Source of the DNA: an uncultured Staphylococcaceae bacterium
GTDB taxonomy: Bacteria > Bacillota_I > Bacilli_A > RFN20 > CAG-826
Length of the DNA stretch: 64,000 nt
Assembly (NCBI GenBank): GCA_964410505.1
Contig: CAYPGR010000004.1
Location: 20,576 to 84,575, forward strand
Direction: 5' to 3'
The notes below the pieces were generated by a model that made no database searches, was not told the DNA's origin, and saw only the letters and a list, made by a program, of their open reading frames with translations. The number at the start of each line of letters is the position of its first letter. Position 1 is the first letter of the stretch. Shown piece by piece: positions 2,919 through 57,830 of this stretch. Both the position numbers and the translations under genes were made by a program.

Positions 2919-3554
2919 ATGAACAAAAATGTATTAGAACAATCACCAATTGAATCCAAGGAAAAAGAACCGATTTCACGGCGCCAATCTAAGAGAAGAC
3001 AAACTACCATTATTGTTGGGACAGCTATCTTTGCGGCGATTTCCGTTTTACTATATATTGCCAAAGTACCGCCCTTTATTTTTCCAATTTTCCCACCTCC
3101 ATTTGATTTTTTAGAAATCAATTTTAGTGAAGTGCCAGCAATGATTGCCGGCTTTGCGTATGGACCACTAAGTGGATTCATGGTGTTAGTTATTCGCTTT
3201 CTTGTTAAATTACCTTTAACTTCGACTGCCATGATTGGTGAAGTAGCCGATATTATTTATTCATCGAGTTTCGTCTTAACAGCAACGATTATCTATAAAT
3301 ATCGGCGGACCTTTAAGGGGGTTTTATTAGGATTAAGTATCGCCTTTTTCGTTCAAGTGATCGTGAGTGCGGCCGCAAACTACTTTGTGATTTATGATAT
3401 GTATAATGTGCTATTTGGTGGCCACCTCCCATTTAATGCCAAACAATTTATTGTTTATGTAATCCCCTTTAACATGATTAAAAACTTAATTATTGCGACG
3501 TTGACGCTTCTCGTATATAAGCGGATTTCTAAATTTATTAGAGGTTTCTATTAA
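2919..3554 (+). CDS. ribU: ECF-transporter substrate-specific (S) component, probable riboflavin transporter RibU
   Basis: 211-aa polytopic membrane protein (~5-6 TM) with no ATPase or T component nearby. It lies directly behind an FMN riboswitch, the classic ribU arrangement. Confidence 0.7.
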   Translation: MNKNVLEQSPIESKEKEPISRRQSKRRQTTIIVGTAIFAAISVLLYIAKVPPFIFPIFPPPFDFLEINFSEVPAMIAGFAYGPLSGFMVLVIRFLVKLPLTSTAMIGEVADIIYSSSFVLTATIIYKYRRTFKGVLLGLSIAFFVQVIVSAAANYFVIYDMYNVLFGGHLPFNAKQFIVYVIPFNMIKNLIIATLTLLVYKRISKFIRGFY

Positions 3555-7582: not shown

Positions 7583-8251
7583 ATGTCGAACCCTCATTCA
7601 AAGCTTTTTGAAGAAATAGCAACCGTTTTTAATAAGCACGGCTTTAAACTCTACATGGTTGGAGGAACAAGCCGTGATTTTCTTTTGGGCGAAGAAATTG
7701 ATGATTACGATTTTGCCACGGACGCGACACCCGATGATATGCGGGCCTTTTTACCGAAGGCTAATTATCGATTTAGCATGTTTGGAACGATAACTTTCAA
7801 AATCCACGGACAAAAGGTGGAAGTGACCACACTTCGTCAAGAAGGTGAATATCGTGATTTACGGCACCCAAGTGCGATTACATTTGTACGTGAACCCGAG
7901 AAAGATTATGTACGACGTGATTTCACCGTTAATGCCCTTTATATTGATGAAAATTATCGGGTACTTGATTTTTGTCAAGGGCTTGATGATTTAAAAAAAC
8001 GCATTTTACGAATGATTGGTGATCCCCAAGTTCGTTTTAAAGAGGATCCGTTACGGATGTATCGGGCTCTTCGTTTTATTGTTAGATTCGGCTTCAAATT
8101 CGATTTAATACTCAATAATGCAATGACTGAAAATGCCGAATTATCTACAAATTTAAATCCAGATAAAATTGCGGGTGAACGAAGAAAAGTGCACCCTGAG
8201 CACCTCGCTAATTATGATGCTTTGTGTCGTTACTATAAGCTTTCTCTATAG
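7583..8251 (+). CDS. CCA-adding/poly(A) polymerase-family nucleotidyltransferase, head-neck only (222 aa); the tRNA-binding body/tail domains are absent
   Basis: Pol-beta NTase head motifs GGTSRDFLLG and DYDFATDA, then neck motif RRDFTVNALY. The ORF stops 55 nt before glmS with no room for a C-terminal half. Confidence 0.6.
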   Translation: MSNPHSKLFEEIATVFNKHGFKLYMVGGTSRDFLLGEEIDDYDFATDATPDDMRAFLPKANYRFSMFGTITFKIHGQKVEVTTLRQEGEYRDLRHPSAITFVREPEKDYVRRDFTVNALYIDENYRVLDFCQGLDDLKKRILRMIGDPQVRFKEDPLRMYRALRFIVRFGFKFDLILNNAMTENAELSTNLNPDKIAGERRKVHPEHLANYDALCRYYKLSL

Positions 8252-8305
8252 TCGAGGGAGTGAAGTCTTTCATTTGTAGTAAAATATATAACAAGAGGTA
8301 CTTTT

Positions 8306-10093
8306 ATGAGTGGATTTATTGGTCGTGTCAGTGAAAATAGTATTAAAAATCATATATTAAAAGCTTTAAAGGTTTTACAATTCAAAGATGATGATTCGAC
8401 AGGGGTCTTATTATGTGGCCCCAAAAAATGTGAAATCTATAAAACGGTTGGTCAACTTAAAGATCTCCTCCCGCTTATTCCAGAGGAAGATGATGGTTGT
8501 ATTGGAATAGGGCATACCCGGTGGTCCACCTACACGAAACAAACTTTGAATAATGTTTATCCGATTCACTCCCAAAATAAACAGCTCTCGCTTGTCGTCC
8601 ATGGATTAGTCGATAATATCTTAAATATCAAACGTAAATTGGTCAAAAAAGGTTATGTCTTCACGAGTAACTCGGCAGTCGAAGTAGTTGCGAACCTCAT
8701 TGAAGACTCAAGTGGCCAGGGTATTACGAATTTAGAGGCCCTCGGAAAAGCCGTTAACTTATTATCTGGGAGTTACGCGATTGTGGCAGTTTTTAAAGAC
8801 GATCATGAACGTCTTTTCTTTGCGAAAAACGCGAGTCCGCTTATTATCGGTAAAAATGATCAAGCAATGGCGATAACGACTGATTTCCCCGCTATTGCAG
8901 GGGATGCGCATAGTTATTACTATCCGCAGGACGGTGAAATCGGTTATATTACGAAAGATGAACTCTTTGTTTTTGATAACACCTTGAAACCGCAAGCGTT
9001 TACTTTCTCCGAAACATCGGCTTCTGAAGAATCACTTGAACTCGGTGATTACCCACACTATATGTTGAAAGAAATTGAAGAAGCCCCACGGGTCATTCGC
9101 CGCTTAATTAATCAATATTTTGACGGCAGTAAATATCGGTTTGATGACCGGCTCATTGAACGGATTAATCATGCCGATAACATTGTCTTTATTGCCGCGG
9201 GTACAAGCTACAATTCCGCTTTGGTCGGACAACGTTACTTGCGTAACTTCAATAAAAAAGTTGATGTTTTTATTGCCAGTGAATGGATTTATTACCCCTA
9301 TCAAACTGGGACCAATCCGCTTTATGTCTTAATTTCACAATCGGGTGAAACCTCCGATATCTTAAAATGCCTAAAAGTAATTGAAACTTATGGTGGGGAT
9401 GTCCTGGCGATTACAAACACTGAAGTATCGACTTTATATCGGCAGGCAGATTACCGCTTGTTGCTCCATGCCGGTACCGAAATTAGTGTCGCGAGCACGA
9501 AAGCATATATCGCCCAAATTACTTTGCTATCACTTCTTTATGCGCGGCTTGTGAATAAAATAACAACTATTGCGGCGCTTGAATTAGTAATTACGGCGAT
9601 TGAAGCCATTATTAGTCAAAGAGATGAAATTAAAAGGATTGCTAAGGACATTGCAGGTTCTAAAGATGTCTTTTTCCTTGGTCGTGGATTTGATTATGAT
9701 CTCGCAATTGAAGCCCAATTAAAACTTAAAGAAACTTCATACATTCACTCGGAAGCATATGCGGGCGGAGAAATCTTACACGGTCCGATTGCGCTCATTG
9801 AAAAAGAAACGCCGGTTGTGGTATTTGTAAGTGATGAAGCAACGGTGATTGCGATGCGTGAAGTCATTGAAGAATTAAAGAAACGGACCGATAAAATCAT
9901 TATTTGTTCGGCAGCGCCATTTAATTTACCTACTGATCGTTTCTCCATCGAAAAACCAGTTCGCGGTTATCACAGTCCGATTGTCTTTGCGGTATTTGCC
10001 CAATATTTAGCCTACTATACCGCCGTCTCTTTAAATCGGGATGTTGATCGCCCACGGAACTTAGCGAAGGCAGTGAAAGACCGCGATGTTTAA
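8306..10093 (+). CDS. glmS: Glutamine--fructose-6-phosphate aminotransferase homologue with a non-canonical N-terminus (MSGFIG, not MCGIVG)
   Basis: 595 aa. The C-terminal tandem SIS domains are canonical (LISQSGETSD, C-terminal ...DVDRPRNLAKAV). The N-terminal Ntn-glutaminase domain is recognisable but has Ser at position 2. AGAGG RBS. Confidence 0.8.
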   Translation: MSGFIGRVSENSIKNHILKALKVLQFKDDDSTGVLLCGPKKCEIYKTVGQLKDLLPLIPEEDDGCIGIGHTRWSTYTKQTLNNVYPIHSQNKQLSLVVHGLVDNILNIKRKLVKKGYVFTSNSAVEVVANLIEDSSGQGITNLEALGKAVNLLSGSYAIVAVFKDDHERLFFAKNASPLIIGKNDQAMAITTDFPAIAGDAHSYYYPQDGEIGYITKDELFVFDNTLKPQAFTFSETSASEESLELGDYPHYMLKEIEEAPRVIRRLINQYFDGSKYRFDDRLIERINHADNIVFIAAGTSYNSALVGQRYLRNFNKKVDVFIASEWIYYPYQTGTNPLYVLISQSGETSDILKCLKVIETYGGDVLAITNTEVSTLYRQADYRLLLHAGTEISVASTKAYIAQITLLSLLYARLVNKITTIAALELVITAIEAIISQRDEIKRIAKDIAGSKDVFFLGRGFDYDLAIEAQLKLKETSYIHSEAYAGGEILHGPIALIEKETPVVVFVSDEATVIAMREVIEELKKRTDKIIICSAAPFNLPTDRFSIEKPVRGYHSPIVFAVFAQYLAYYTAVSLNRDVDRPRNLAKAVKDRDV

Positions 10094-10727
10094 TAAGGCA
10101 TTAGATTTTCGTTTTATGCTCTTTGAATACTATAAAGAGCTTCGGATGAGTGAAACTGAACTCGTCGTGCTTTTGTTCATTGAGCATTTGCAACAAAAAG
10201 ACACTGATTTTGTCACCCCCGATCTCATCAATTTACAATCAAATATTGACATTCGTCTAATTGATGAGACGATGGTCAAACTTGTCAGTAAAGGCTTTAT
10301 TGAATTTAGTAATCGACACGGGAAAATGGTGACTTCTTTAAACCCATTACGAAAAAAATTGCAAACCCTTTTTGCGCTTGATTATGAGCAAGAAAAAGAG
10401 AATGCGACCGTTGATTTTTCAAATCAAACCGAAGAAATCTATGCCCTCATCCAAAATGGATTTGGTCGCTCTTTATCCCCCGTTGAACTGCAAACCATTA
10501 ATCAATGGTTTTCCTATGGTTATTCAGTTGCAATGATTAAAGAAGCTTATGAAGAAAGTCTAAAAAAGAAACGTTTTAATATTCGGGCCATTGATAAGGC
10601 ACTTCTTAAACTTGCGACCGCTGTTGATTATGCTGTTGAAGGTAAAAGCGCCCAGGATCCAAGTTATCGTAAAGACATCAAACAAACGTTAGATGAAGTA
10701 AATAAAAAGATTAAAGATGACGAATAA
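10086..10727 (+). CDS. dnaD: DnaD-domain replication initiation/membrane attachment protein
   Basis: 213 aa with the C-terminal DnaD/DnaB domain-like region (...LQTINQWFSYGYSVAMIKEAYEESL...). The dnaD-nth adjacency is conserved in Firmicutes. Confidence 0.55.
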   Translation: MFNKALDFRFMLFEYYKELRMSETELVVLLFIEHLQQKDTDFVTPDLINLQSNIDIRLIDETMVKLVSKGFIEFSNRHGKMVTSLNPLRKKLQTLFALDYEQEKENATVDFSNQTEEIYALIQNGFGRSLSPVELQTINQWFSYGYSVAMIKEAYEESLKKKRFNIRAIDKALLKLATAVDYAVEGKSAQDPSYRKDIKQTLDEVNKKIKDDE

Positions 10728-11352
10728 GAATAGAGATAAGATCCTCGCCTTCTTTGACGAGGCTTACCCGGATGTTCAGGGTGAATTAACCTACCAAAAA
10801 GATTATGAATTGCTCATTGCGGTCGTTTTAAGTGCCCAATCTACCGATAAGTCCGTCAATCAAGTCACGACGAAGTTATTTGGTGATTATCCGACTTTTG
10901 ACGCACTCAAAACACTAAAAGAAACCGATTATGCCGTGTATTTTAAAACTCTTGGCCTTTATCGGAATAAGGCCAAACACATTTATCAACTTGTCAATAT
11001 GCTCGATAAAGACTATCAAGGACGCGTTCCTCAAGATAAGGAATCCTTAATGGCCCTTCCTGGGGTTGGTATTAAAACCGCGAATGTGGTGCGCGGGGAA
11101 CTATTTAAAATTCCCGAAATTGCCGTTGATACCCATGTTGCTCGGGTTTCTAAACGATTAGGGTTTGCTACACTTGATGATCAGGTAAATGTCATTGAAA
11201 GCAAACTTCAAACACTTATCCCTCAGAAACGATGGATTAAAACGCACCATCAAATGATTCACTTTGGTCGCTATTTTTGCAAAGCCAAAAAACCGCGTTG
11301 CAAAGAATGCCCGCTCATTGATCTTTGTCTTGAGAAAAAGAAAAATTTATAA
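10717..11352 (+). CDS. nth: Endonuclease III (DNA-(apurinic/apyrimidinic site) lyase)
   Basis: HhH-GPD motif LPGVGIKTANVV and the C-terminal 4Fe-4S cysteines CKAKKPRCKECPLIDLC. Confidence 0.9.
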   Translation: MTNKNRDKILAFFDEAYPDVQGELTYQKDYELLIAVVLSAQSTDKSVNQVTTKLFGDYPTFDALKTLKETDYAVYFKTLGLYRNKAKHIYQLVNMLDKDYQGRVPQDKESLMALPGVGIKTANVVRGELFKIPEIAVDTHVARVSKRLGFATLDDQVNVIESKLQTLIPQKRWIKTHHQMIHFGRYFCKAKKPRCKECPLIDLCLEKKKNL

Positions 11353-11931
11353 CGAAAAGAGTGTTATCACGGCAGGTAAGTAGTTTAAGATTGGGTTGAT
11401 GTTATAAGGGACATGGATCCCTTTTTCTTTAATTAAAGAATACGGAATCGATTTTCGTTCTCCATTATTAGAGGCAGCAATCACAAAGGAGGCCGGTAAA
11501 ACATAGACTTCGTTTTTTAAAGCAAATTCAATAATGAAAAAGGCAATGCCACCATGTTTGATGACGTTTTCTAAATGCTTAATTTGATGGTCGGAAATAT
11601 TATTAAGCGGGAAACTTGTCTTAAGTTGGGTACTCTTTGCCTCGAAGTCGAGATATCGATTGCGATAAAGGCCATTGTAATCGGTCGTCGATTGTTTTTC
11701 AAAATAGGCATTCGTTATTTTGGCCCCCTTCGAGTAATCAATTTTTACAACGTTGATCGGGGTCGGTCGTTTTGTAATGAGGGCAATATCATGCATTAAA
11801 TAATAATCATTCGCAGCGTTAATGATCTTTTCTAGTTGCATCCCGCGGTTTCCGGGTGAAGTCGGCATACTTTTTTTCCGTGAGGTCGCAACTGACTTCG
11901 CGGTATATGGTTTAGAAGGATAATTGACCAT
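11347..11931 (-). CDS. recU: Holliday-junction resolvase RecU
   Basis: 194 aa with RecU-like sequence (...GMQLEKIINAANDYYL...YLDFEAKSTQ...). Confidence 0.85.
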   Translation of the reverse strand: MVNYPSKPYTAKSVATSRKKSMPTSPGNRGMQLEKIINAANDYYLMHDIALITKRPTPINVVKIDYSKGAKITNAYFEKQSTTDYNGLYRNRYLDFEAKSTQLKTSFPLNNISDHQIKHLENVIKHGGIAFFIIEFALKNEVYVLPASFVIAASNNGERKSIPYSLIKEKGIHVPYNINPILNYLPAVITLFSL

Positions 11932-12656
11932 TAGACGATTTCTTCCTCAAGATACTTATAAATATCTTCTGCTGTAACCGTGCCCCCTTCTTTAATCTTT
12001 TGGAGGGCCTTTTTAATGGGGCGAGGCACATTATTGATATTGAGAAGTACGGCCGCATAGCGTTCTTTGATGATCTCGGGTTTTTTAAATAGTTCGTTAA
12101 AGAGATAACCAAGAAGTAGGGCATCATTTAAAGGATCGTGGGCTGGTTCAATCGTCGGTATTTCAAATAGCTTGCAGAGATTTGTGAGAGATAACGTATT
12201 ATTTTTGTCGTCTTTGATGTATTCACTCACGAGGGTACTTAGATCAAGATGGTTCTTGATAATGGTTGTGACAATCCCATGATTAGCTTCAGGCGTATAA
12301 AGAAGTGATTGTTTTAAAATCCGAACATCATGGCTCCCGAAAGTGACGAAACGACTTTTTGAAAAATTCGTGCCAACATACTTTTTAAGTAACGGCAAAG
12401 CTTCTTCAAAACCGATTCCTTCTTTCGCCAGGAGATCACTCGTGATGCCGGTTAATTCTTCAACGAGACGGCCAACATTATGCTTTGCCAACACATATTT
12501 TTTGAAACCAGGATAGAACTTTTTGACGGTTCCGTCCGGATTAAGCGTGGCTTTAACAGCGCCAATGGCAATGGTCTCATGGCTAAACTGGGTCCCCTCT
12601 AAATCAAGAAAAACAATTTGTTTACGGCCTCGGACTTGTTTCAGCAATTTTTTCAT
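11931..12656 (-). CDS. DEDDh-family 3'-5' exonuclease (KapD/DnaQ-like)
   Basis: Exo I IVFLDLEGTQF, Exo II FGSHDVRIL and Exo III HDPLNDALL motifs are all present. Confidence 0.6.
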   Translation of the reverse strand: MKKLLKQVRGRKQIVFLDLEGTQFSHETIAIGAVKATLNPDGTVKKFYPGFKKYVLAKHNVGRLVEELTGITSDLLAKEGIGFEEALPLLKKYVGTNFSKSRFVTFGSHDVRILKQSLLYTPEANHGIVTTIIKNHLDLSTLVSEYIKDDKNNTLSLTNLCKLFEIPTIEPAHDPLNDALLLGYLFNELFKKPEIIKERYAAVLLNINNVPRPIKKALQKIKEGGTVTAEDIYKYLEEEIV

Positions 12657-12699
12657 ATTCTAAATTATACCATAACCATATTTATCATGCTTTGCTTTA

Positions 12700-12728
12700 T
12701 TGCCTTTACCCCCTTTTACATATATAAT
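12700..12728 (+). promoter_or_regulatory. Sigma-A-type promoter of gpsB
   Basis: TTGCCT-17 nt-TATAAT (within TATATAAT) sits 20 nt upstream of the gpsB ATG region. Confidence 0.4.
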
Positions 12729-12746
12729 ATGTATGCGAGGTTACAC

Positions 12747-13097
12747 ATGGCGGAAAAAATACGACTGGATGCTGAAAAAATTCTTAAGAAAAAGTTCAAA
12801 GCAAAAAGTGGCGGTTATGATGCTTTAGAAGTGGATGAATATCTTGATTTAGTGCGCGAAGAATACCTCGTTTTAATGGCGAAGGAAACGGAACTCAATC
12901 ACCTTCTCACTAAAGCCGATAAACTGACAGCCCGGAATGTGGATCTTGAAGCGCTTAATTTACAATTAACCCGCAAAGTTGCCGAATTAGAACGCCTGGT
13001 CGCTAAAGGTGGGACAACGATGGAAAACTTACGGAAAATTGACAAATATGAGCGACAATTATGGGCGCTCGGGGTTGACCCTGGGAAAGTTAAATAA
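12747..13097 (+). CDS. gpsB: DivIVA-domain cell-cycle protein GpsB-like
   Basis: N-terminal DivIVA motif ILKKKFKAKSGGYDALEVDEYLDLV followed by coiled coil. Start at ATG 12747; the longer ORF-track start overlaps the convergent exonuclease gene and the promoter. Confidence 0.65.
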   Translation: MAEKIRLDAEKILKKKFKAKSGGYDALEVDEYLDLVREEYLVLMAKETELNHLLTKADKLTARNVDLEALNLQLTRKVAELERLVAKGGTTMENLRKIDKYERQLWALGVDPGKVK

Positions 13098-26948: not shown

Positions 26949-27572
26949 ATTTTACAAGTTATTAACCTTAAAAAAACATATGACATAAGTGAAGTTCTAA
27001 AAGGAATTTCATATACTTTTAAACATGGTCATCTTTATGTCCTGGTTGGGAATTCTGGTAGTGGAAAATCAACTTTTTTACATCTTATCGCGCACCTTAT
27101 TAAACGGTCGGCGGGGGAAATCCGTTATCAAGATCAGCCGTTATCCCCAAACGCTGTTACTCTCGTGATGCAACAACCCTATTTTCTTGGAGACATTTCA
27201 ATTAACGACAATTTAAGGATTAGTGAGATCTTTTCAAAAAAATCGAATAAAGCGATAAAAAAGTCACTCTTCAAGGCTTTTGATCTTGACCAAATAAAGA
27301 ACCGTAAGGTGTCACTTTGTAGTGGCGGTGAGAAAGCTCGTGCGAATATCATTCGTGGCCTTTTGACATGCCGCCCGATTATTTTAATTGATGAGCCGAC
27401 GGCACATTTGGACGCGGAAAATAGTAAACGAGTGGCCGCGCTTCTTAGCCGCTATGCAAAGCGCTGTATTATGATTGTAACCACGCATCAACCACAATTT
27501 TTTCATTTTAGTAATAGTGTTTTTTTAGCAGTTGATGAAGGGATATTGAAGACCAATCATGATCCGGCTTAA
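26949..27572 (+). CDS. ABC transporter ATP-binding protein (stand-alone NBD); no ATG/GTG/TTG start, probable ATT initiation
   Basis: Frame is open from 26934 (after a TAG). Walker A GNSGSGKST is encoded about 130 nt before the first ATG (27165). GGGAGG lies 5 nt upstream of ATT 26949. Signature LCSGGEKAR, Walker B ILIDEPTAHLD, H-loop TTHQ. Confidence 0.6.
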   Translation: MLQVINLKKTYDISEVLKGISYTFKHGHLYVLVGNSGSGKSTFLHLIAHLIKRSAGEIRYQDQPLSPNAVTLVMQQPYFLGDISINDNLRISEIFSKKSNKAIKKSLFKAFDLDQIKNRKVSLCSGGEKARANIIRGLLTCRPIILIDEPTAHLDAENSKRVAALLSRYAKRCIMIVTTHQPQFFHFSNSVFLAVDEGILKTNHDPA

Positions 27573-28803
27573 GCTATTTAAAACGCTATATAATCGCAAT
27601 CTAAAAAAGAATCGATTGATGGTTATCTTTATGTTACTCACCAATTTTTTATTGGGTTCGTTTGTGCTTTTTCTCGATGCGGATAAAGAGGTCGTGACGC
27701 GTCTAGATCAAAGTTATTTAGAACATCTTAGTGTGGGAATTTCATCTTATGAAACCCTAACCACAAACAATGAGTTAATTAATGTACGTATGCACCAACG
27801 ACCTCCTATGGATATCTTAACTTCGATGATGACCCATATCGGTTACTTTGAGGTTCGCCCTGATTATGGTCTTCTTTTTGATCACGCAGAATTAATGATG
27901 TTTGAAAAAATATTAAACAAGCCAACGATTGCGATTCATGCTTTAAAAACGAATGCCATTGGTATCAATCGTTCATTTTATGATGAACTAATTGATGCAG
28001 TGCAGCCGCTTGATAGCCTCATCATTAATCTCAAAATTGCATTTACCTTAAGTTTGAATGCAACTGATCTCGACATTAATATTAACGAATCCCTTAGCAT
28101 CTCCTATATTCATGATGAGGCCCCTTTTTTTCTCACCCCAAAGCTCTACCTTCCACAGTCGATGATTGATGAAAAAATTGGGGGTTACCAGTTATTTGAG
28201 GATGTAACGATAAATGATTATTTACTTAATTTGCCTAATGATCATCCCTCCAGTGGTTATCAGTTGCTTTGTCATCTTGAATCCAATGCTCAAAAGCAAC
28301 GCCTCATTTCTCTTGTTGAAGATTTAAGTGACGACACCTATGGCTATGTGCTGACAGGTGATACGGTGAGCAAACTTCAAAGTGTCAAGGCAATGTTTTT
28401 CTACGTAAATCTTTTAGTATCAATCTTTCTTGTGCTTATTGTTATCGGGTGTATTGTGGTTTACGTGACTATTATTCATACGTCTTTACTCTCTTCGATG
28501 CGGCAAATGGCGCTTTTAAGTATTTGGGGTGCAAAGAAAGGGCAACTGTTCGCACTATTTATCAGTTTGGTAATGTTCAATTTTGTTATGGGATTAAGTG
28601 TCTTTCTTCTATTTCCGCCTCTTATAACAGCGCTTAACCGCTTTTTATCCTCCTTTCTTCGAATGCCTTTAATCTTCGGTTTCAAATCTTTCCGCATTTT
28701 TATTCTTATCACATCGCAATTCGTGATTATGACGATACTCTACACCGTGCTTTTCTTCGTGAATAATCGAAAGCCACTCTTGTATTTATTACTAGATGCT
28801 TAA
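27559..28803 (+). CDS. FtsX/MacB-type ABC permease with ~250-aa extracytoplasmic domain
   Basis: TM1, then a large external domain, then three C-terminal TMs. It overlaps the upstream NBD gene by 14 nt. Confidence 0.7.
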   Translation: MIRLKLFKTLYNRNLKKNRLMVIFMLLTNFLLGSFVLFLDADKEVVTRLDQSYLEHLSVGISSYETLTTNNELINVRMHQRPPMDILTSMMTHIGYFEVRPDYGLLFDHAELMMFEKILNKPTIAIHALKTNAIGINRSFYDELIDAVQPLDSLIINLKIAFTLSLNATDLDININESLSISYIHDEAPFFLTPKLYLPQSMIDEKIGGYQLFEDVTINDYLLNLPNDHPSSGYQLLCHLESNAQKQRLISLVEDLSDDTYGYVLTGDTVSKLQSVKAMFFYVNLLVSIFLVLIVIGCIVVYVTIIHTSLLSSMRQMALLSIWGAKKGQLFALFISLVMFNFVMGLSVFLLFPPLITALNRFLSSFLRMPLIFGFKSFRIFILITSQFVIMTILYTVLFFVNNRKPLLYLLLDA

Positions 28804-31498
28804 GATAAAAGATTTAAAATGTCGGCTTGATGGGTGTGATATTCTTGATATCGATGACTTGCATATAAAGGGGCCCGGCCTCTATATTTTAAGTGGCCCT
28901 TCAGGATGCGGAAAAACGACATTACTCAATGTCATTGTGGGTTTAGAAAAAAGATATCAGGGGCACGTTCACGTATTTAATCGCGACTACCAAAAGATTA
29001 AAGAAAAGGATATTGTTCGCTTGCGATCGAGCCATTTTAGTATCTTCTTTCAACATAATGTTTTCCTCGAAGATTTAATGCTTAAGGATAATATTCGACT
29101 TTCTCGGGTATATAATCACAAAGATCCCCATCATCCTTTTACGCATGAAGTGAATCAATTATGTTCGCAATTAAGAATTTCAAAAGCCGCTTTTCAAAAA
29201 GTGAGTACGCTTTCTGGTGGCGAAAAAACACGAGGTGGCATTGCGCGTGCACTCTCAAAAGTTGTCCCGCTTTACATTTTTGATGAACCGACCGCTGCCC
29301 TTGACCGTGAGAATGCGGCCCAAGTGATGGAACTAATCGACATTAAGGCAAAGACGAGTATTGTGTTGTTGGTCACCCATGATACGACTTTGGCCCAAAC
29401 TCACGCAAATATTATTTATCATATGGCTTATGGACGTATTGTCAAAGAAGAAGTGGTTAAACCCGTTCTTAAAAAGGAGGTCCCTTCCGGGCAATTGATT
29501 GATTATCGCGAGAATGCGCCCGTTATTGCCCATCAGTTAATTAAAGCTAAAAAAAGTCGTCACCTCGTTACCGGGGCAAGCATCAATTTGGGATTAATTG
29601 GGATTGGTCTCTCGCTTTTATTAGTCAGTGCGGTCAATACAAAACTTGTGCAAGCTTTTAAGGGGCAATTTAATGAAGAAACAATCTATATTCGGTCATC
29701 TTTTTCACCGCAAGTAAACAAAATTCTGAGTCCATCTGACGATCAAATTAATCTAGATTTCGGCGGAAATTCGATGATTGGATCGGTCTATTTAAATAAC
29801 TTTGATCATTTCTTTCCTGATACCAATGAGTTAAAGATACATGTTGATCGTTATCAAATTCCCTTGCCTTCTTTCCATATTGGGCTTTTTAATGAGGCGT
29901 TATTTTTAGAGGAAGTGAGCTCAGATTTAAGTCCTTCAATCACGGTCCTGGCGGACGATGAGTTAGCACTTGTCTTACCGCAAGATGATTTCAAAATCAT
30001 GCAAAATATCCTCGGACTCCCTTATAAAAATAAGATTGATGATTTATCGTTTTATATTAGCCGTAACCCCGTGGTCTTAAACTTAAGTGTTGCGAATAAG
30101 TGGTGGGATTATGAGGATAATTTTAGCTATCTTTTAAAGGCTGTGATGCTCGGGAGCAAGGCTGCGATTGTGCTCAACACCCCTCATCAAGTTCGCCAAT
30201 TGTTTGAAGAGAAAATGCCCTTTCCTTCGTCATTAGATCAATTAAAGAATGAGGACTATCCGTGGATTCTTAAAAAACTTAATTATTTATTTTCTATGCG
30301 TCCGTTTGATATCTTATGGGATCCCCAAATGTATCATAAGTATCTCCCCTTTAGCGCGAATAATCGTTTTTTTACCCATCTTAGTGATAATCAGCATTTG
30401 AAGCGACGTCTATTACTTTATGAAACGCCACCGAAGTTCAATTATGTGGTGACCAGTTTTGAATCCTCTCTTTCACCCACTTTTTATACATTCAATCGTG
30501 GCCTGCACTTTATCCCTGAATTGTTGCTTTTGGGATTTCAAAATAATTTTATGATGAGTAGTGATCCTGTTCTAGTTGAGGATTTTATACGCATCGATAA
30601 AAGTTATGTTTCTGTTTTAAATCCAGAGATAAAACTGGATCCGAAAATAACGAACTTTGGCCTACATCAAAATAGTTTTGGGAGCTTTCATTTCGATAAT
30701 CTTCAAGGCTTTCATACCCTGGATAGTATTGGTATTTCTCGTGGCTTAGCCGAGCAATTATTCGGTAGTACGGATGCTCTTGGGAAAGACCTTCATGTGG
30801 GTGCGTTAATTGATGTCTATGAAGGAGAAGAAGGTTATCACAAGGAATATCAAATGATGACGCTTCGCGTTGTAGAAGTGGTTAAACATTCTGGCATAGC
30901 CATCTATCAGCATCCATTGTGGCCTTATCTTCTCTTTAAAGATAAATTTGGTGTTTCACCCTTAGCGCTTGAGTTAACGGGCGCTTTATTTGTTGATGGC
31001 ATGACTATGGATTCCTTAATATCAGGGCAGACTTATGAAATTGACCATCCTTATCGATCGTTCAAGGATACGATTGATGAAACAATCAATAACTTAAAGC
31101 GTTACACAACGATGGTAGCGTTGGGATCTTTTTTATTAAGTGTCCTCATTATTTTCGTGGTCATATATTTACTCATTTCTGAGACGAATGATCAGTTCAG
31201 CGGTCTTTATTTAATGGGCTATCCAAAAGAAGCCATACAAGATGTGGTCACACATTATATTGTCACATTCATCTCGGTGATTTTGATGATCGCTTTGATA
31301 CAGCTTTTCATCCTGTCGCTTGTGATTGAGTTCATCTTAATGGATTTTTTAAAGATCTCTTTTCACTACTCGTTCCATTACCAACCTTATCTTTGGGTAT
31401 TGGTCCTGACGATGATGGTGTTAATAGGGACGCTTTTTTACTTTAAATGGCTAATGAAAGACCATGATCTCTTACAATTTTCGAAACGTGATTTATAA
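28796..31498 (+). CDS. Fused ABC ATPase + FtsX/MacB-type permease (900 aa) with ~480-aa extracytoplasmic domain
   Basis: N-terminal NBD (GPSGCGKTT, LSGGEKTRGGIARAL, IFDEPTAALD), TM1, a large external domain and three C-terminal TMs. It overlaps the upstream permease gene by 8 nt. Confidence 0.75.
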   Translation: MLKIKDLKCRLDGCDILDIDDLHIKGPGLYILSGPSGCGKTTLLNVIVGLEKRYQGHVHVFNRDYQKIKEKDIVRLRSSHFSIFFQHNVFLEDLMLKDNIRLSRVYNHKDPHHPFTHEVNQLCSQLRISKAAFQKVSTLSGGEKTRGGIARALSKVVPLYIFDEPTAALDRENAAQVMELIDIKAKTSIVLLVTHDTTLAQTHANIIYHMAYGRIVKEEVVKPVLKKEVPSGQLIDYRENAPVIAHQLIKAKKSRHLVTGASINLGLIGIGLSLLLVSAVNTKLVQAFKGQFNEETIYIRSSFSPQVNKILSPSDDQINLDFGGNSMIGSVYLNNFDHFFPDTNELKIHVDRYQIPLPSFHIGLFNEALFLEEVSSDLSPSITVLADDELALVLPQDDFKIMQNILGLPYKNKIDDLSFYISRNPVVLNLSVANKWWDYEDNFSYLLKAVMLGSKAAIVLNTPHQVRQLFEEKMPFPSSLDQLKNEDYPWILKKLNYLFSMRPFDILWDPQMYHKYLPFSANNRFFTHLSDNQHLKRRLLLYETPPKFNYVVTSFESSLSPTFYTFNRGLHFIPELLLLGFQNNFMMSSDPVLVEDFIRIDKSYVSVLNPEIKLDPKITNFGLHQNSFGSFHFDNLQGFHTLDSIGISRGLAEQLFGSTDALGKDLHVGALIDVYEGEEGYHKEYQMMTLRVVEVVKHSGIAIYQHPLWPYLLFKDKFGVSPLALELTGALFVDGMTMDSLISGQTYEIDHPYRSFKDTIDETINNLKRYTTMVALGSFLLSVLIIFVVIYLLISETNDQFSGLYLMGYPKEAIQDVVTHYIVTFISVILMIALIQLFILSLVIEFILMDFLKISFHYSFHYQPYLWVLVLTMMVLIGTLFYFKWLMKDHDLLQFSKRDL

Positions 31499-37017: not shown

Positions 37018-37796
37018 TGTACAAACGTGAAATTGAAGCGGCGATTAAGGCAGGCCTTATCGCTAAAGATATTATTATGCACTATTATCGTTCCACTTTT
37101 GAAGTGGAAATTAAAGATGACCAGTCCCCAGTAACAATTGCCGATCAAGAAGCGGATCTAGCAATCCGTCAATATCTTGCCCCTCTTTTTCCAAATTATC
37201 ATTTCTTAACGGAAGAAGGCGTCGATAATTTGGAGCGCTTAACGGCCGATTATGTATGGATTATCGATCCACTTGATGGGACAAAAGATTTTATCAATCG
37301 TGATGATGAATTTACGACATGTATTGCGCTTTCTTATCAAGGTGAAATCGTTGTAGGGGTGATTGTCGCCCCGGTGACGGGCCGTGTCTTCTTCGCTAGT
37401 AAAAATGGCGGTAGTTTTGAACGACTCCCAAATGGCGAAAATCGTCGTTTACAGGTGAGTGACAGGACCCAAAACATTACCATCTCAGCTTCACGCTATC
37501 ACCGTCGCCCGATTGAAAATGATTACCTTGAACGGAATAAGGATTTATTCGCGAAGGTGGTCACGCTTGGCTCAACCTTAAAGGCCATTGCGATTGCGAG
37601 CGGGGAAATCGAAATGTTTTATCGCGGCAGTGCCGGTACCAAAGAATGGGATGTGGCTGCTGCCGATATTATTGTGACTGAAGCAGGAGGACTCTTTATC
37701 GAGCCCGATGGTAGTAAAATAAAATATAACAAAAAAGATGTCCAAAATCGAAAAGGTTATATCATTGTTAATCGTAAGGAGAATATTCGTTTATGA
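37017..37796 (+). CDS. Inositol-monophosphatase-family / CysQ-like 3'(2'),5'-bisphosphate nucleotidase
   Basis: IMPase motif WIIDPLDGTKDF. Start overlaps the nrnA stop (TAATG). Confidence 0.75.
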   Translation: MYKREIEAAIKAGLIAKDIIMHYYRSTFEVEIKDDQSPVTIADQEADLAIRQYLAPLFPNYHFLTEEGVDNLERLTADYVWIIDPLDGTKDFINRDDEFTTCIALSYQGEIVVGVIVAPVTGRVFFASKNGGSFERLPNGENRRLQVSDRTQNITISASRYHRRPIENDYLERNKDLFAKVVTLGSTLKAIAIASGEIEMFYRGSAGTKEWDVAAADIIVTEAGGLFIEPDGSKIKYNKKDVQNRKGYIIVNRKENIRL

Positions 37797-39268
37797 AGTT
37801 AAGACGATTCGTACTATTCCCGCTTTTAGCCATCGTGCTCATTAGTTGCAATCGTCATACATCAAGCGAACCAATCAGTGTTCCGCTTACGTATGATGTT
37901 TATCAAGATGAAGAATATAGTGCTGTCGTGGATGAAGAAGGTTTTACGCTTATCGATTTCTATGGCTTAAATGATTATCATGGGGCACTTGAATATAATG
38001 TTGAAGATCGGATGCCGGGTATTGCGCGCCTCAACCAATTTTTAAAAACGGAGCGGGATAAAAATCCGGGTGGCACTGTCTTAATTGCTAATGGTGATAT
38101 GTGGCAAGGAAGTGCCGATTCGAACATGACAAGAGGCAAGATTGTTAATCACGCCTTAAATCATATGGGATTTGCAGCCTTAACGCTTGGTAATCACGAA
38201 TTTGACTGGGGAATCGATCTTATTAAAGCAAATAAACTTGATTCAAATTTCCCATACCTTGGTTCAAATATTATCGACAAAGAGTCACGTGAAGTGATTG
38301 ACTTTGTTGATCCATCGCCGCTGATTGAACGCGATGGCGTTAAAATTGGGATTATCGGAACGATGGGAAGTGATTTAAAAACAACCATCCAAACAAGTTA
38401 CGTTGAAGATCTCGAATTTGATATTTTAACGACCTATGTTGAAAGCGAAGCCGCGCGGTTACGGGAAGCAGGTGCGAACTTAATTATGCTGGCGGCCCAT
38501 GATACGTGGGTATCTAACCTCACACCAGACCGCCGGTCGTTAGTCGATGAAAAAATTGTTGATGTGGTCTTTACAGGCCATCAACATGCCCTCGACAAAC
38601 AACTCGTTAACGGCGTGCCCATTCTTCAAACAAGAGGTCGAGGACGCGATGTCATGCACGCGCAACTTGGGTATAATAAACTCACCCAGGAAGTCAAACT
38701 TGTAAGCAGCGACGTGATTGAAAATATTCATGAAAAAGAACTAATAGAAGATGAAGTGAGTGCCTACATCTATAACTATTTCTATGAGCAATATGGCATT
38801 GAAGCGATCAAGAACGAAGTTTTAGGGACGCTGATAAATAAAGATATGACAAGAAGTTCAGTCGCCAAACTGGTCGTTGAAGCGATGACCAAAGCTTATC
38901 CTACTGCGGTTGGAGCCCTTCACAATGTTAATGGCGGTATTCGCGCTGAATTTAGCGTGGGAGACATTACGTATAACGATGTTTATAGTGCTTTCCCGTT
39001 TGATAATGAACTATATTTAATTACACTTTCGGGGCGTCGATTACAAAGCCTCATGAGCGCTAGTGGAAACTTTGCCTACTACTTTACCCTTGGGTATGAG
39101 GATGTTGATCCAAGTGCGATGTATCAAGTAGTCACCATTAGTTTTGTTTACGAACTTAATGGTTCACCCGTTAGCGGCCTACCCTACGAAAATATGTTTA
39201 CATATCCACGCGATATCGTCGCTGATTTTATCCGTGTTAATGAAGTTATAGATGGGAATCAATATTAA
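37793..39268 (+). CDS. Lipoprotein, bifunctional metallophosphatase/5'-nucleotidase family
   Basis: Lipobox LISC, metallophosphatase motif GNHEFD and a 5'-nucleotidase C-terminal domain, 491 aa. Confidence 0.8.
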   Translation: MKLRRFVLFPLLAIVLISCNRHTSSEPISVPLTYDVYQDEEYSAVVDEEGFTLIDFYGLNDYHGALEYNVEDRMPGIARLNQFLKTERDKNPGGTVLIANGDMWQGSADSNMTRGKIVNHALNHMGFAALTLGNHEFDWGIDLIKANKLDSNFPYLGSNIIDKESREVIDFVDPSPLIERDGVKIGIIGTMGSDLKTTIQTSYVEDLEFDILTTYVESEAARLREAGANLIMLAAHDTWVSNLTPDRRSLVDEKIVDVVFTGHQHALDKQLVNGVPILQTRGRGRDVMHAQLGYNKLTQEVKLVSSDVIENIHEKELIEDEVSAYIYNYFYEQYGIEAIKNEVLGTLINKDMTRSSVAKLVVEAMTKAYPTAVGALHNVNGGIRAEFSVGDITYNDVYSAFPFDNELYLITLSGRRLQSLMSASGNFAYYFTLGYEDVDPSAMYQVVTISFVYELNGSPVSGLPYENMFTYPRDIVADFIRVNEVIDGNQY

Positions 39269-40848
39269 TGAAAAAAATAAGTTTTTTAATCCTTGCCTTG
39301 TTAGTGAGCGGTTGTACCCCAACTTCTAGTGCAAGTAGTGATGCAATCACAAGTTTGCCGTCAGAAAGCACAAGTGAGACTAGTAGCAGCCAATCCTCAA
39401 GCGAAGGATTAACCACAAGTGATATCACTTCAACAACTGAATCCTCCTCCCTCACTAGTAGCGAAGAAAGTTCAATCCCTAGTTCAAGTGAAGATACTAG
39501 AACAGGAATGAGGAAATTGAATTTCTATGGAATCAATGATTTCCATGGTGCGGTAATCGAGTCAAGTACTGAACCGGGCATCTTTAAGTTAGGGAGTTAT
39601 TTAAAAACCCAATACGCGAAAAATCCTGAAGGATCAATTTTTATCAATGCTGGTGATTTTTGGCAAGGAAGCGCTGACTCAAATATCAATAAAGGCGCTT
39701 TTTTAACTGAAGCGATGAATGTTTTGGATTTAGATGCCTTTACCCTTGGTAATCACGAATTCGACTGGTTTGATGTGGCGATTGAAGCAAATAAAGCACG
39801 CGCTTCTTATCCCTTTTTAGGGGCGAATGTCATCAAAAAGGAAACCAACGCGATTGCAACGAACCTTGTCCACTATGATGACACCTTTAAAGCGAGTGTC
39901 ATTGTCGAAAAAAATGATGTAAAAGTTGGGATTGTTGGAACAACAGGATCAACCCTCGAGGGCTCAATTTTAGGTACCTCCATTGCCCCTTATTCCTTTA
40001 ATCCAGTAGATACTTATATTCGCAGTGAAGTCGCAAACTTGCGGGCGCTTGGCGCAGATGTGATTGCGTTAAGTACCCATGATTCACTTTATGGTTCAAT
40101 AGGTGAATATACAGGGATTATCAATGATCGCTTAGTCGATGTTATTTTTACTGGCCACGCCCATGCGCAACATAATGAAAAAATAAATGGTATTCCAGTC
40201 TTACAAACGAATGGTTATGGCAAACAAGTTATGGAAGTTGATGCTTTTTATGACTTTGACGAAAAATCCTTCTTGGTTGAAGCAACTCGACTCCAAACCG
40301 CAAATATCATTAAGGAATTTAGTGAAGATCAGGAACTTCTTAATCTATTTAATGAGGATTATTTAGATGAAATAAGTATTATAAAAAATGAAGTTGTCGG
40401 GACATTAACGACAGATATTTCGAAACCAGGCCTTGTGAATATGGCCAATCAATTAATGTTTGAATTTGCTTCTTCTGATTTCGGGCTCACTGATGTGGTT
40501 GCTGTTCATAACCTTGGGGGCGTCCGTGTGGATTTTGGCTTACCTGCGGGTGAAGTGACATATGGTGACATTTATCGGGCTTTTCCGTTTGATAATGAAG
40601 TGATGATTATTGAAAATATGAGTGGATCTGAAATTGCGAGTTTTATAGGAAGATCCAATTATTCTCTCCCTGCAAAATCGACACTCCTTAGTTCTAAAAT
40701 GTATAATTTAGTGACCATTGATTATCTGAGTTTTTATGAATATTCTAATACCATAAATTATGATCAAACACATACCCATCAATTTGTAAGGGAGATGGTT
40801 GCCGATTTATTCCGTGCTGAGCAAACGATTAATGGATCTAGCTATTAA
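39268..40848 (+). CDS. Lipoprotein, 5'-nucleotidase family, paralogue with Ser/Thr-rich linker
   Basis: Lipobox LVSGC, a ~70-aa S/T/E-rich low-complexity linker, then GNHEFD. It is a tandem paralogue of the preceding gene. Confidence 0.8.
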   Translation: MKKISFLILALLVSGCTPTSSASSDAITSLPSESTSETSSSQSSSEGLTTSDITSTTESSSLTSSEESSIPSSSEDTRTGMRKLNFYGINDFHGAVIESSTEPGIFKLGSYLKTQYAKNPEGSIFINAGDFWQGSADSNINKGAFLTEAMNVLDLDAFTLGNHEFDWFDVAIEANKARASYPFLGANVIKKETNAIATNLVHYDDTFKASVIVEKNDVKVGIVGTTGSTLEGSILGTSIAPYSFNPVDTYIRSEVANLRALGADVIALSTHDSLYGSIGEYTGIINDRLVDVIFTGHAHAQHNEKINGIPVLQTNGYGKQVMEVDAFYDFDEKSFLVEATRLQTANIIKEFSEDQELLNLFNEDYLDEISIIKNEVVGTLTTDISKPGLVNMANQLMFEFASSDFGLTDVVAVHNLGGVRVDFGLPAGEVTYGDIYRAFPFDNEVMIIENMSGSEIASFIGRSNYSLPAKSTLLSSKMYNLVTIDYLSFYEYSNTINYDQTHTHQFVREMVADLFRAEQTINGSSY

Positions 40849-52771: not shown

Positions 52772-53698
52772 TTAATCGTCAAGATTAGATTCTTCACTAA
52801 GGTAAGCGGGTCGATTAAGCAGTTGATCACGGACATCATAAACAACCTTTAAAATGTATTTTAAGATGATTGTTATAAGGAGGGTTCCTAAGGTAATGCT
52901 CATGTAGAGCCACATATTAGAATACGGACTAATGAGGCCAATCACGAGTTGAGTGATTAAGCCAAGGAAAAGAAAGATGCAAATCAGATTGGGGACAAGT
53001 TCATAGATTCTTGAGAATTGTTCAATTCCTGTCATCCCATACTTAAATAGTTTCTTAAAAGACCATTTTGTCGTCCCAGCAGCTCGGTCATGATATTCAT
53101 ATTCGACACACTTGCGCTTAAAGCCGATGCTTGAAGAAATGCCTTTCGAATAGCGACGTTTATCTTTGAAGGCGACGAAGGCCTTCATAACATCTTTATC
53201 AAGAAGGGCGAAATCACGAGCACTTGAAACTGTGTTTTTATCACCTGTCAAAACGGCATAAACTTTGTAAAAAAGTGTTGAGAATACTTTTTTAAGAAAG
53301 GCTTGGCCTTTCCGGTCCTTGTTGCGGGCATAGATATACTTATATCCTTCTTCATAATAGCGAATAAAATCAATCATAATTGAAGGTGGATCCTGAAGAT
53401 CAGCGTCCATGAATAAGCACGCGTCGACATTCATTTTTAAACTCGCCTCTAATCCTGCTAGCATCGAGGATTCTTTACCAAAATTGCGTGAAAAGGAAAT
53501 GAACTTGACGCGGGAATCAAGGGCGGCTTTTTCTTTAATTAAAGGCAATGTTTTATCTTTTGAACCATCATTAACAAAAAGAAGAGTGAACTCATATTGC
53601 GGAATTTTACTGATGACTTTAGTAATTTCTTCGTATAACGTAAAAATCATTTCTTCTTCGTTATAACAAGGGATAATAAGACTTATTTTTTTGTTCAT
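52772..53698 (-). CDS. GT2 polyprenol-phosphate glycosyltransferase (GtrB/CsbB-like)
   Basis: LIIPCYNEE...VNDGSKD...DADLQD motifs plus two C-terminal TMs. AAAGGTG RBS before the ATG at 53698. Confidence 0.8.
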   Translation of the reverse strand: MNKKISLIIPCYNEEEMIFTLYEEITKVISKIPQYEFTLLFVNDGSKDKTLPLIKEKAALDSRVKFISFSRNFGKESSMLAGLEASLKMNVDACLFMDADLQDPPSIMIDFIRYYEEGYKYIYARNKDRKGQAFLKKVFSTLFYKVYAVLTGDKNTVSSARDFALLDKDVMKAFVAFKDKRRYSKGISSSIGFKRKCVEYEYHDRAAGTTKWSFKKLFKYGMTGIEQFSRIYELVPNLICIFLFLGLITQLVIGLISPYSNMWLYMSITLGTLLITIILKYILKVVYDVRDQLLNRPAYLSEESNLDD

Positions 53699-53778
53699 AA
53701 ATACACCTTTACTTACCAAATCATATCATTTTAAATGAACTAAGTAAATTTATTGTGTATTCATAATATAATTAGATT

Positions 53779-56526: not shown

Positions 56527-57812
56527 TTAAGACGAGGCTTTAGATTGTTTTCGTTTTCAATTTTTTCCAATACTTTGGGAGCTTCATAAATCAAATATAT
56601 AATAAGGAATAAGTTGATTAACGCCGCTAGCCGGACACTATCTTGATCCAAAAATTTGAAGATATAGCCGCCCATTAAAAAGTGGGTATAGGCAAGGACT
56701 GAGGAGAAGGACATTAAGAGACCAAGCCAGTATTTTCGTTTGTATACCAAAACATATAAAATGACAAAAGCATCTGCCATATAGAAATATCGCTCATGCA
56801 TATGGGGCAGAACAAAAGGTGATAATAGTGAAAAGAGGACGGCAACATAGATGGTGTTTTTAGGGGTTGCTGGTACCTTGTAGTGGAATAATACCAAAAT
56901 GGCAACACCGATGGCGGCAAACGCCCCGATAATGCCAGCGCCTGCATTAATCCCACCTTTAAGGGCGGAAAATTCGAAGAAAGCATAGATTGAACCGGCG
57001 CCGTAATTGGCGTTTTTATATAATCCCGTAATTTGAAGTTTGTACATATCAAAAGGCATATTAAAAGGTGCGCCAGCGATATAACTCGGAATAAAGGTTA
57101 CAAAAATAGCGGCAAATAGAATAATTAATGACCGTAATTTAAACACTTTATTGAGCCATAAAAAGACTAATACTGGTAAAAAGAAGGTGGTTTGCAATTT
57201 TATGGCAATCGCAAAGCCAAGCAGCACCATTGCCCAACCATGTTTTTCCCGGATAAGAAAATACAACGTCCACACGACAAGGGCGACATACATTTGATCG
57301 GCTTGCCCCCAAAGCCCAGAGTTTAAGATGCTCGTTGGGAAGAAGACCAAAACGATAAAACTGATGAGTGAAAAATAATGATTCTTATTCCAAAGTCTAA
57401 TCAACTTAATAACCCCAAAGGCTAAAATATAATCAAATAAAATACTTGAGAGTTTAATGGATACAATTCCATCAAGGGGTAAGTAGGATAATAACGCCAG
57501 GATGTTGATATACGCGACCGGATAATCACCCGGTTTAGAGATCACTTGTGGCGTCCACGGATAAGAACCCATCGCTTTAAAGCCACCATTTTGCTTCAAA
57601 AAATTAAACCATGGTAAGAGGGCCCCATACATATCGCCACTTAAATAGCGAATAAAGACCCAACGAACAAGAAATGATAAGACAAAGATGACGGCAAAGA
57701 CGAGGATAAGATAGTATCTCCGAAAGTAAGTCATAAAGAGGTCAAATATTTTGTTGCAAAAAGTATCTATGCTTTTACTTATCTTTATAAGCCAGTTTTT
57801 TAATGGTTTCAT
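56523..57812 (-). CDS. Second GT-C-fold polytopic glycosyltransferase (PMT_2/DUF2029-like), 429 aa
   Basis: About 11 predicted TMs with short loops. It is convergent with yfhO and lies directly upstream of a gtrA-like gene. Confidence 0.55.
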   Translation of the reverse strand: MKPLKNWLIKISKSIDTFCNKIFDLFMTYFRRYYLILVFAVIFVLSFLVRWVFIRYLSGDMYGALLPWFNFLKQNGGFKAMGSYPWTPQVISKPGDYPVAYINILALLSYLPLDGIVSIKLSSILFDYILAFGVIKLIRLWNKNHYFSLISFIVLVFFPTSILNSGLWGQADQMYVALVVWTLYFLIREKHGWAMVLLGFAIAIKLQTTFFLPVLVFLWLNKVFKLRSLIILFAAIFVTFIPSYIAGAPFNMPFDMYKLQITGLYKNANYGAGSIYAFFEFSALKGGINAGAGIIGAFAAIGVAILVLFHYKVPATPKNTIYVAVLFSLLSPFVLPHMHERYFYMADAFVILYVLVYKRKYWLGLLMSFSSVLAYTHFLMGGYIFKFLDQDSVRLAALINLFLIIYLIYEAPKVLEKIENENNLKPRLN

Positions 57813-57830
57813 GATGAACTCCTTCGTGCG

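Follow-up and report, generated by a model that had tools for sequence, protein, structure and literature searches.

The 64,000-nucleotide stretch of DNA analysed here (the window; contig CAYPGR010000004.1 of assembly GCA_964410505.1, from an uncultured bacterium) contains, between a gene for a PolyA_pol/CCA-type nucleotidyltransferase and dnaD, a glmS homologue whose product lacks the catalytic cysteine (Table 1). GlmS is regarded as the universal glutamine-dependent entry to amino-sugar biosynthesis, and its Cys1 as indispensable. The gene, which we call the variant glmS, begins with ATG AGT GGA TTT ATT GGT (M-S-G-F-I-G). Two GlmS models, NF001484 (518.7 bits, cut-off 381) and TIGR01135 (495.3 bits, cut-off 418), match its product from end to end, an alignment to E. 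coli GlmS (4amv) covers residues 1-590 at 32% identity, and the single chain combines an N-terminal nucleophile (Ntn) domain (Pfam GATase_6/7) with two SIS domains (Pfam SIS, 121 bits). The AlphaFold2 (AF2) model, with a mean predicted local distance difference test score (pLDDT) of 87, a predicted template modelling score (pTM) of 0.81 and disordered residues 584-595, resembles two-domain E. coli GlmS (2j6h/1jxa) with template modelling (TM) scores of 0.83-0.86 and the isolated glutaminase domain with 0.93; in Foldseek the chains of 3OOJ were best by E-value, yet their TM score was only ~0.55. By sequence and predicted fold the protein is a member of the GlmS family, which bears out the initial annotation of a GlmS homologue with serine in place of Cys1.

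Could the missing cysteine be an artefact? A single substitution separates AGT from TGT, and the trivial explanation would be a base misread in codon 2 or a misassigned start. The frame upstream of the ATG runs for 14 codons, with neither ATG, GTG or TTG nor a Cys codon, before it reaches TGA, and four codons 5' of that TGA lies an in-frame TAG, the stop of the preceding gene. Because of this TAG the start is valid under genetic code 4 as well, in which TGA encodes Trp. A mis-called start, which had already been argued against from the upstream frame, and a code-4 read-through are thereby ruled out.

An N-terminus without the cysteine recurs in all close relatives. A search of 5.8 billion clustered proteins ranks 27 clusters that begin with MSG first (55-91% identity) and four that begin with MGG next (52-55%), while at 45% identity or less the listed matches begin with MCG, save one shorter protein whose N-terminus is absent. 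The motif MSGF[IV]GR is well conserved, its serine being invariant in the 27 MSG clusters. At the DNA level, nine independent loci with the start on the contig read ATG-AGT (seven assemblies) or ATG-GGT (two), each with a ribosome-binding site. A second search, of 1.84 billion representatives at 50% identity, collapses the whole variant clade into one representative (998 bits), followed by a canonical match at 665 bits; 137 of the 148 other top matches begin with MCG, the remainder being start miscalls or fragments, plus one singleton. Neighbour-joining trees of the N-domain and of the C-domain each place the variants as one clade inside canonical GlmS of metagenome-assembled genomes (MAGs) of uncultured Bacilli, which indicates a single origin without domain swap. 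Across the 31 variant clusters there are no frameshifts or stops. With AGT recurring in seven assemblies, GGT in two others, the upstream frame closed and more than ten co-occurring active-site substitutions fixed clade-wide, an artefact is excluded, its residual probability being negligible; the genuine divergence favoured by the initial annotation rests on this conservation, on the recurrent AGT/GGT codons and on purifying selection. Annotation pipelines label the proteins of the clade as ordinary GlmS, and a search of the open-access literature for natural Cys-less or ammonia-dependent GlmS gave no description of such a clade.

A second, independent Cys-less GlmS, P0322, was found as a singleton on a Logan contig of SRR11702760 (L086, 10001-11824). 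It carries C1S, T76A, H77R, H86Y and N98S and retains R26, R73, D123 and the TVE tail; its nearest relatives, at 72% identity, are canonical. The gene lies in a classical cdaA-cdaR-glmM-glmS operon directly 3' of a glmS ribozyme (L086, 9833-9979), and it may represent either a recently inactivated protein or an enzyme that works without Cys in a biosynthetic operon.

To describe what has changed in the clade, we compared 31 variants with 89 canonical GlmS proteins, using E. coli numbering. In the E. coli enzyme, as reported in the structural work of Isupov, Teplyakov and Mouilleron, Cys1 is the nucleophile, Asn98 and Gly99 form the oxyanion hole, Arg73 and Asp123 hold the carboxylate and amino groups of glutamine, residues 73-80 are the Q-loop, and the ammonia channel is lined or gated by Arg26, Tyr28, Trp74 and the C-tail (600-608). 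Lys603 is the Schiff-base lysine of the isomerase site. The protein in the window shows the substitutions C1S, R26K, G27D, Y28D, A75S, H77Y, G78T, H86Y, H97V, N98H, D123A and T124V. All divergent glutaminase motifs quoted in the initial annotation are present, and the alignment to characterised GlmS places the residues it listed on C1, A75, H77, G78, N98, D123 and T124. Clade-wide, the altered N-domain columns among those that are more than 95% conserved in canonical GlmS are C1, I3, V4, G19, Y25, R26, G27, Y28, A34, A75, H77, G78, P80, H86, H97, V100, T122, D123 and T124. Some replacements are fixed (S75, Y77, Y86, S122, A123), others drift, with K/D/N/Q/E at position 26 and H/N/D/T at position 98. 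The nucleophile position is Ser in the main group and Gly in a sister subclade, the other changes being alike in both. Arg73, Trp74 and Thr76 of the Q-loop and Gly99 are kept. The oxyanion pair Asn98-Gly99 thereby reads His-Gly in the window; the loss of the oxyanion-hole Asn that had been claimed holds for this protein but not for the clade.

The C-terminal half had been described as canonical. This is correct for the SQSGET loop, the lysine of NLAK and the isomerase residues, but not for the tail or for the clade-specific K503L and S483Q. Altered C-domain columns comprise K503, S483 and a few others, and in the tail A602, T606, V607 and E608 are changed although more than 95% conserved in canonical proteins; the tail reads ...LAKAVKDRDV instead of ...LAKSVTVE, and within the clade positions 606-608 vary or are missing. 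Kept are 78 conserved C-domain columns, and in 31/31 variants the equivalents of S303, S347, Q348, S349, T352, K485, E488, H504 and K603; in the numbering of the window protein K588, E476, H492, K473 and the phosphate loop S344-T349 (SQSGET) correspond to E. coli K603, E488, H504, K485 and S347-T352. At the sequence level, the clade-wide changes are concentrated on the glutaminase site, the presumed ammonia-channel residues and the C-terminal tail, and the isomerase site is conserved.

Purifying selection acts on both domains. In the least saturated informative pair of loci, L003 and L004, the N-domain has a ratio of nonsynonymous to synonymous divergence (dN/dS) of 0.14 and the C-domain one of 0.05. 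Between the window and L085, whose variant GlmS is 91% identical, dS is saturated (>1.1), so that dN/dS of the window gene is only bounded and dN comparisons are usable: dN is 0.089 for the N-domain and 0.038 for the C-domain, against 0.188 for the neighbouring Nth and 0.223 for PolyA_pol. The N-domain diverges 1.65-2.4 times as fast as the C-domain in the clade versus 1.2-1.3 times in canonical GlmS. By these figures the N-domain is relaxed yet clearly maintained, and not a decaying remnant.

Table 1. Features of the variant glmS locus; positions refer to the window.
Feature	Position	Strand	Basis
Variant glmS gene: 595-aa GlmS homologue, full-length, catalytic Cys absent	8306..10093	+	Open reading frame (ORF), GlmS models, E. 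coli GlmS alignment, AF2
N-terminal Ntn (class-II amidotransferase) domain, residues 1-240, putative pseudo-glutaminase	8306..9025	+	Pfam GATase_6/7, substitutions, dN/dS 0.14
Isomerase half, two SIS domains, residues 241-595, active-site residues kept	9026..10093	+	Pfam SIS, conservation in 31/31 variants, dN/dS 0.05
Codon 2, AGT (Ser), at the canonical Cys1 position	8309..8311	+	AGT in L001-L007, GGT in L009/L010
Ala124, at the E. coli Asp123 position	8675..8677	+	D123 to A in 31/31 variants
His99, at the E. coli Asn98 (oxyanion hole) position	8600..8602	+	H/N/D/T across the clade
Lys588, equivalent of E. coli Lys603	10067..10069	+	Invariant in the clade
Altered C-terminal tail K-D-R-D-V (canonical T-V-E)	10076..10090	+	Clade comparison; residues 584-595 with pLDDT <50
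Ribosome-binding site AAGAGG, 7 nt 5' of the ATG	8293..8298	+	Purine-rich sequence like a ribosome-binding site at all related loci
Overlap of variant glmS stop and dnaD start, 8 nt, ATGTTTAA	10086..10093	+	ORF coordinates
PolyA_pol/CCA-type nucleotidyltransferase, 222 aa, head domain only, upstream neighbour	7583..8251	+	Pfam PF01743; conserved neighbour
dnaD, downstream neighbour	10086..10727	+	Pfam DnaD_N + DnaB_2; conserved neighbour

The MAGs that hold the related loci bear the labels Tenericutes bacterium ADurb.Bin239 and ADurb.Bin087, Bacillales bacterium UBA1361, and Bacilli bacterium. Of the member genomes at least three, L005 among them, belong to the genus UBA1361 of GTDB RFN20/CAG-826. 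Supplementary tables of two papers give UBA1361 as GTDB Bacilli; RFN20; CAG-826, with genomes of 1.2-1.5 Mb, ~36% GC and 94-99% completeness, and GCA_002069815.1, from the ADurb accession range, is also of this genus, which is described as a hydrolyser in anaerobic digesters. The window has ~39% GC and a class-B RNase P RNA; compared with the related loci, its RecA is 90-94% identical and its variant GlmS 68-69%, so that its genome is a relative of theirs and presumably a member of the family. The family CAG-826 is predicted to be peptidoglycan-deficient (PMC10868615). In the wall-less relatives Acholeplasma, Anaeroplasma and strain zrk7 GlmS is canonical and begins with MCG, from which it follows that the gene is retained despite the absence of a wall.

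The order cmk-der-(gpsA)-hbs-PolyA_pol-glmS-dnaD-nth-recU-...-rnpB-pgsA-cinA-recA, with the variant glmS, is common to 11/11 loci, the Gly subclade included. An overlap with dnaD is also found in L001, L003-L006, L008 and L085, while the two genes are adjacent without overlap in L002, L009 and L010. Canonical sister genomes share none of these neighbours; sister locus L019 has the classical cdaA-glmM-glmS operon. No glmS ribozyme (RF00234) was found in the window or in seven variant loci, with L021 and L086 as positive controls in which it lies upstream; this absence does not discriminate, since most canonical sister loci also lack it. Neither nagA, nagB nor a sugar transporter was recognised among the window ORFs scanned or the called genes of L001. 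Besides the variant glmS, the ~45 scanned ORFs included no recognised mur, pbp, nag or glm genes, although 64 kb cannot establish absence; the others are housekeeping or glycolytic genes (FBA, PGI, iPGM) and a glycosylation set (GT2/YfhO/GtrA). The parts covered of the supplements of PMC11915838 and PMC10868615 (metaproteome and KEGG Orthology tables) have no entries for glmS, nagA, nagB or glmM. The suggestion of a paralogue beside a normal glmS found no support: nine variant-bearing assemblies hold no second locus, as judged with the patterns KET[TS]YIH[AS]E and STKAYIAQ, which would miss a GlmS with other motifs.

Several further observations concern these surroundings. The product of the upstream PolyA_pol gene has about half the usual length of a CCA-adding enzyme and evolves fast, with 70% identity and dN 0.22 in comparison with a genome that shares 97-98% identity in Der and DnaD. 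The glycosylation genes are clustered at 52772-58523 and comprise a GT2 glycosyltransferase (52772-53719, -), YfhO (53779-56526, +) and a GtrA-like protein (57831-58523, -). Together, GT2, YfhO and GtrA make up the three-part teichoic-acid glycosylation set of Bacillus and Listeria; here the set occurs in a lineage in which peptidoglycan and the standard synthesis of teichoic acids are predicted to be missing. recU (11347-11931, -) abuts nth directly, without a gene for penicillin-binding protein 1 (ponA) beside it; in Bacillus subtilis ponA adjoins recU. A DivIVA-domain gene is retained (12618-13097), and the two observations fit a loss of the wall with some division proteins kept. A flavin mononucleotide (FMN) riboswitch (2774-2886) precedes a component of an energy-coupling factor (ECF)-type transporter (2919-3554), an arrangement kept in L003, L004 and L010 that suggests riboflavin uptake and not synthesis. 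The region 27165-31498 opens with a GTG-initiated 135-aa fragment of an ATP-binding cassette (ABC) ATPase (27165-27572); after it come an ORF of 414 aa that matches no Pfam family and one of 900 aa whose sole recognised domain is an N-terminal ABC ATPase, and the whole may be a disrupted or unusual ABC system. Two tandem paralogous ORFs of 491 and 526 aa (37793-40848) match only the 5'-nucleotidase C-terminal domain and, following a DHH/DHHA1 phosphoesterase and an inositol-monophosphatase-family gene, form with them a nucleotide-scavenging cluster. A c-di-GMP-I riboswitch near the contig end of L006 (170-244, -) has no counterpart in the window at the Rfam threshold. In L021, a sister Bacillota MAG, the region 7599-11779 holds a glmS ribozyme (7599-7737), a type III glutamine synthetase (7880-9976) and a canonical glmS, so that a ribozyme sensing glucosamine-6-phosphate (GlcN6P) would apparently control the supply of glutamine and its consumer alike.

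What might such an enzyme do? We think it probable, at roughly 60%, that the variant GlmS is a natural pseudo-glutaminase which interconverts fructose-6-phosphate (Fru6P) plus NH3 and GlcN6P independently of glutamine, and so probably makes or breaks GlcN6P with free ammonia. Its ancestor would have been the lineage's own glutamine:fructose-6-phosphate amidotransferase, whose glutamine-hydrolysing site was disabled long ago, so that nitrogen is presumably no longer drawn from glutamine. The SIS half would still form the Schiff base at Lys603 and run the chemistry of Glu488 and His504, Fru6P + NH3 <-> GlcN6P + H2O, exchanging ammonia directly with the solvent. The dead Ntn domain, with Arg73, Trp74 and Thr76 retained, may have been kept as a structural lid or partner that closes or stabilises the sugar site. 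The SIS-only homologues GlmD and NagB-II, which have no glutaminase domain, carry out the same interconversion. Furthermore, overexpression of nagB suppresses a glmS defect (PMC11822699). As for the net direction within this interconversion, synthesis is modestly more likely than deamination, because of the constitutive housekeeping placement without catabolic partners nearby, the glycosylation machinery in the window, the normal glmS kept by wall-less relatives and the ammonia-rich digester habitats. The enzyme could thus supply GlcN6P for the glycoconjugates of a reduced, fermentative bacterium that has no wall and lives where ammonia is abundant, as in anaerobic digesters, and the same enzyme could act as a deaminase when amino sugars are plentiful.

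Several points weigh against this reading. Deamination is favoured by the equilibrium and by every SIS-only relative known. The replacements S75, Y77, Y86 and A123 are themselves invariant in the clade, which hints that the old pocket is under some new constraint and does not serve structure alone. A search with the GlmM of L019 gave no match assignable to CAG-826 (one candidate, P0209, belongs to a different organism with 52% GC and a canonical cdaA-glmM-glmS), and wall-lessness is a published prediction at the family level, not for the genome of the window itself. E. coli GlmS alleles with Cys replaced by Ala or deleted do not rescue a glmS nagB double mutant in mineral medium (PMC11822699); a useful ammonia-dependent synthase therefore takes more than the loss of the cysteine, and some further adaptation has to be postulated.

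The functions listed in the initial annotation, namely a glutaminase-dead or ammonia-dependent enzyme, a deaminase-like protein and a sensor, were the right ones, although the evidence does not fully separate them. A dedicated catabolic GlcN6P deaminase, whose SIS half would work like GlmD or NagB-II and channel amino sugars of degraded biomass into glycolysis with the N-domain as ballast, seems possible but not probable. Such a role would suit the intact isomerase site beside lost glutaminase and channel residues, the partial matches to the NagB-II and GlmD models, the hydrolyser habit of UBA1361, the glycolysis genes FBA, PGI and iPGM in the window and the inability of E. coli GlmS C1A to serve as a synthase in the cell (PMC11822699). 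However, known deaminases of the SIS fold have shed the N-domain that is kept here at a dN/dS of ~0.14, the scores are far under the cut-offs of the deaminase families (129 versus 430 and 112 versus 580 bits), and none of the 11 loci has nagA, a transporter or a regulator nearby, the setting being one of replication and housekeeping with the dnaD overlap. It is very unlikely that the protein is still an amidotransferase that uses Ser1 in the style of Ser-Ntn hydrolases, on glutamine or another amide donor: even though the serine directly follows the initiator Met, would be exposed upon its removal, is invariant in 27 clusters within a well-conserved MSGF[IV]GR and is accompanied by Arg73, Trp74, Thr76 and Gly99, a sister subclade with otherwise identical changes has Gly in its place, no member retains Asp123 (Ala throughout), position 98 of the oxyanion hole drifts among H, N, D and T, and neither the channel residues R26 and Y28 nor the C-tail are under constraint.

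The invariant replacements invite another idea, namely that the glutamine pocket was rebuilt for a new ligand, the N-domain being either the entry site for another nitrogen donor or an allosteric sensor gating the isomerase site. Fixed or nearly so in the clade are Ser1 (Gly in the minority subclade), Arg73, Ser75, Tyr77, Tyr86 and Ala123, and from this pattern we regard a rebuilt pocket as conceivable, if rather unlikely; it would mean that wall-less bacteria control the flux of amino sugars in a new way, perhaps linked to the replication gene dnaD through translational coupling. A non-enzymatic or regulatory protein, be it a sugar-phosphate sensor, a partner of the neighbouring functions or the product of a gene decaying after wall loss, is highly improbable. 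The lineage is predicted to be wall-less, the N-domain is less constrained than in canonical GlmS, the old pocket has clade-specific invariant replacements and the coupling to dnaD is tight, but all catalytic isomerase residues are kept although synonymous sites are saturated, the C-domain has a dN/dS of 0.05, and 31 clusters show zero frameshifts or stops; an intact set of Lys603, Glu488 and His504 is more than a pure sensor would require.

The existence of the clade is a robust finding and mechanistically suggestive, in a small clade whose function is predicted. A glmS kept for long with a destroyed glutaminase site would mean that either the isomerase half serves the cell on free ammonia or the dead domain has another role. 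It bears on the repurposing of enzymes after cell-wall loss and on the long-standing question of GlmS chemistry with exogenous ammonia. For RFN20/CAG-826 and similarly reduced gut and digester bacteria, metabolic models would wrongly assume glutamine-dependent GlcN6P synthesis, and the variant could provide a natural template for engineering glutamine-independent GlcN6P production.

How does the variant compare with known systems? With canonical GlmS (EC 2.6.1.16; PDB 1JXA/2J6H/4AMV) it shares the two-domain fold and identical isomerase catalytic and phosphate-binding residues. It differs in the absence of Cys1, Asp123, His77, His86, His97 and, in the window protein, Asn98, in the lack of conservation of residues 26-28 and the TVE tail, and in its location away from glmM and without a glmS ribozyme. 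As Cys1, Asn98, Asp123 and the TVE tail all fail, it should not be annotated as a glutamine-dependent transaminase. The engineered E. coli proteins, C1A (3OOJ) and the Cys2Ala and Cys2-deletion alleles, are likewise GlmS without nucleophile; they are loss-of-function forms that do not support growth (PMC11822699), whereas the natural clade has many more fixed changes and is kept by selection. Classical NagB, the GlcN6P deaminase/isomerase, has an unrelated fold and is not homologous, but it catalyses the reaction proposed here and replaces GlmS when overexpressed (PMC11822699). The SIS-only enzymes GlmD (archaeal, NF041128) and NagB-II (Shewanella type, NF046059), with the structures 2CB0, 3HBA and 8EOL, are homologous to the C-terminal half (E 1e-23 to 1e-37) and lack an Ntn domain, whereas the variant keeps 240 residues of it under selection. 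It scores 112.2 bits against GlmD (cut-off 580) and 128.7 bits against NagB-II (cut-off 430), and trees group it with true GlmS; it stands outside both families but, by analogy, probably works like them. Ser-nucleophile Ntn hydrolases are recognised by a conserved N-terminal Ser and an oxyanion hole, whereas the clade has a Gly subclade and an unconserved oxyanion residue. Beta-lactam synthetase and carbapenam synthetase, which are AsnB homologues, retain an inactive Ntn domain without Cys for structural purposes; their synthetase domain and chemistry are different, and the relation in sequence is limited to the Ntn fold. It is this retained, Cys-less domain that, by analogy, appears to be the nearest conceptual precedent for the variant GlmS.

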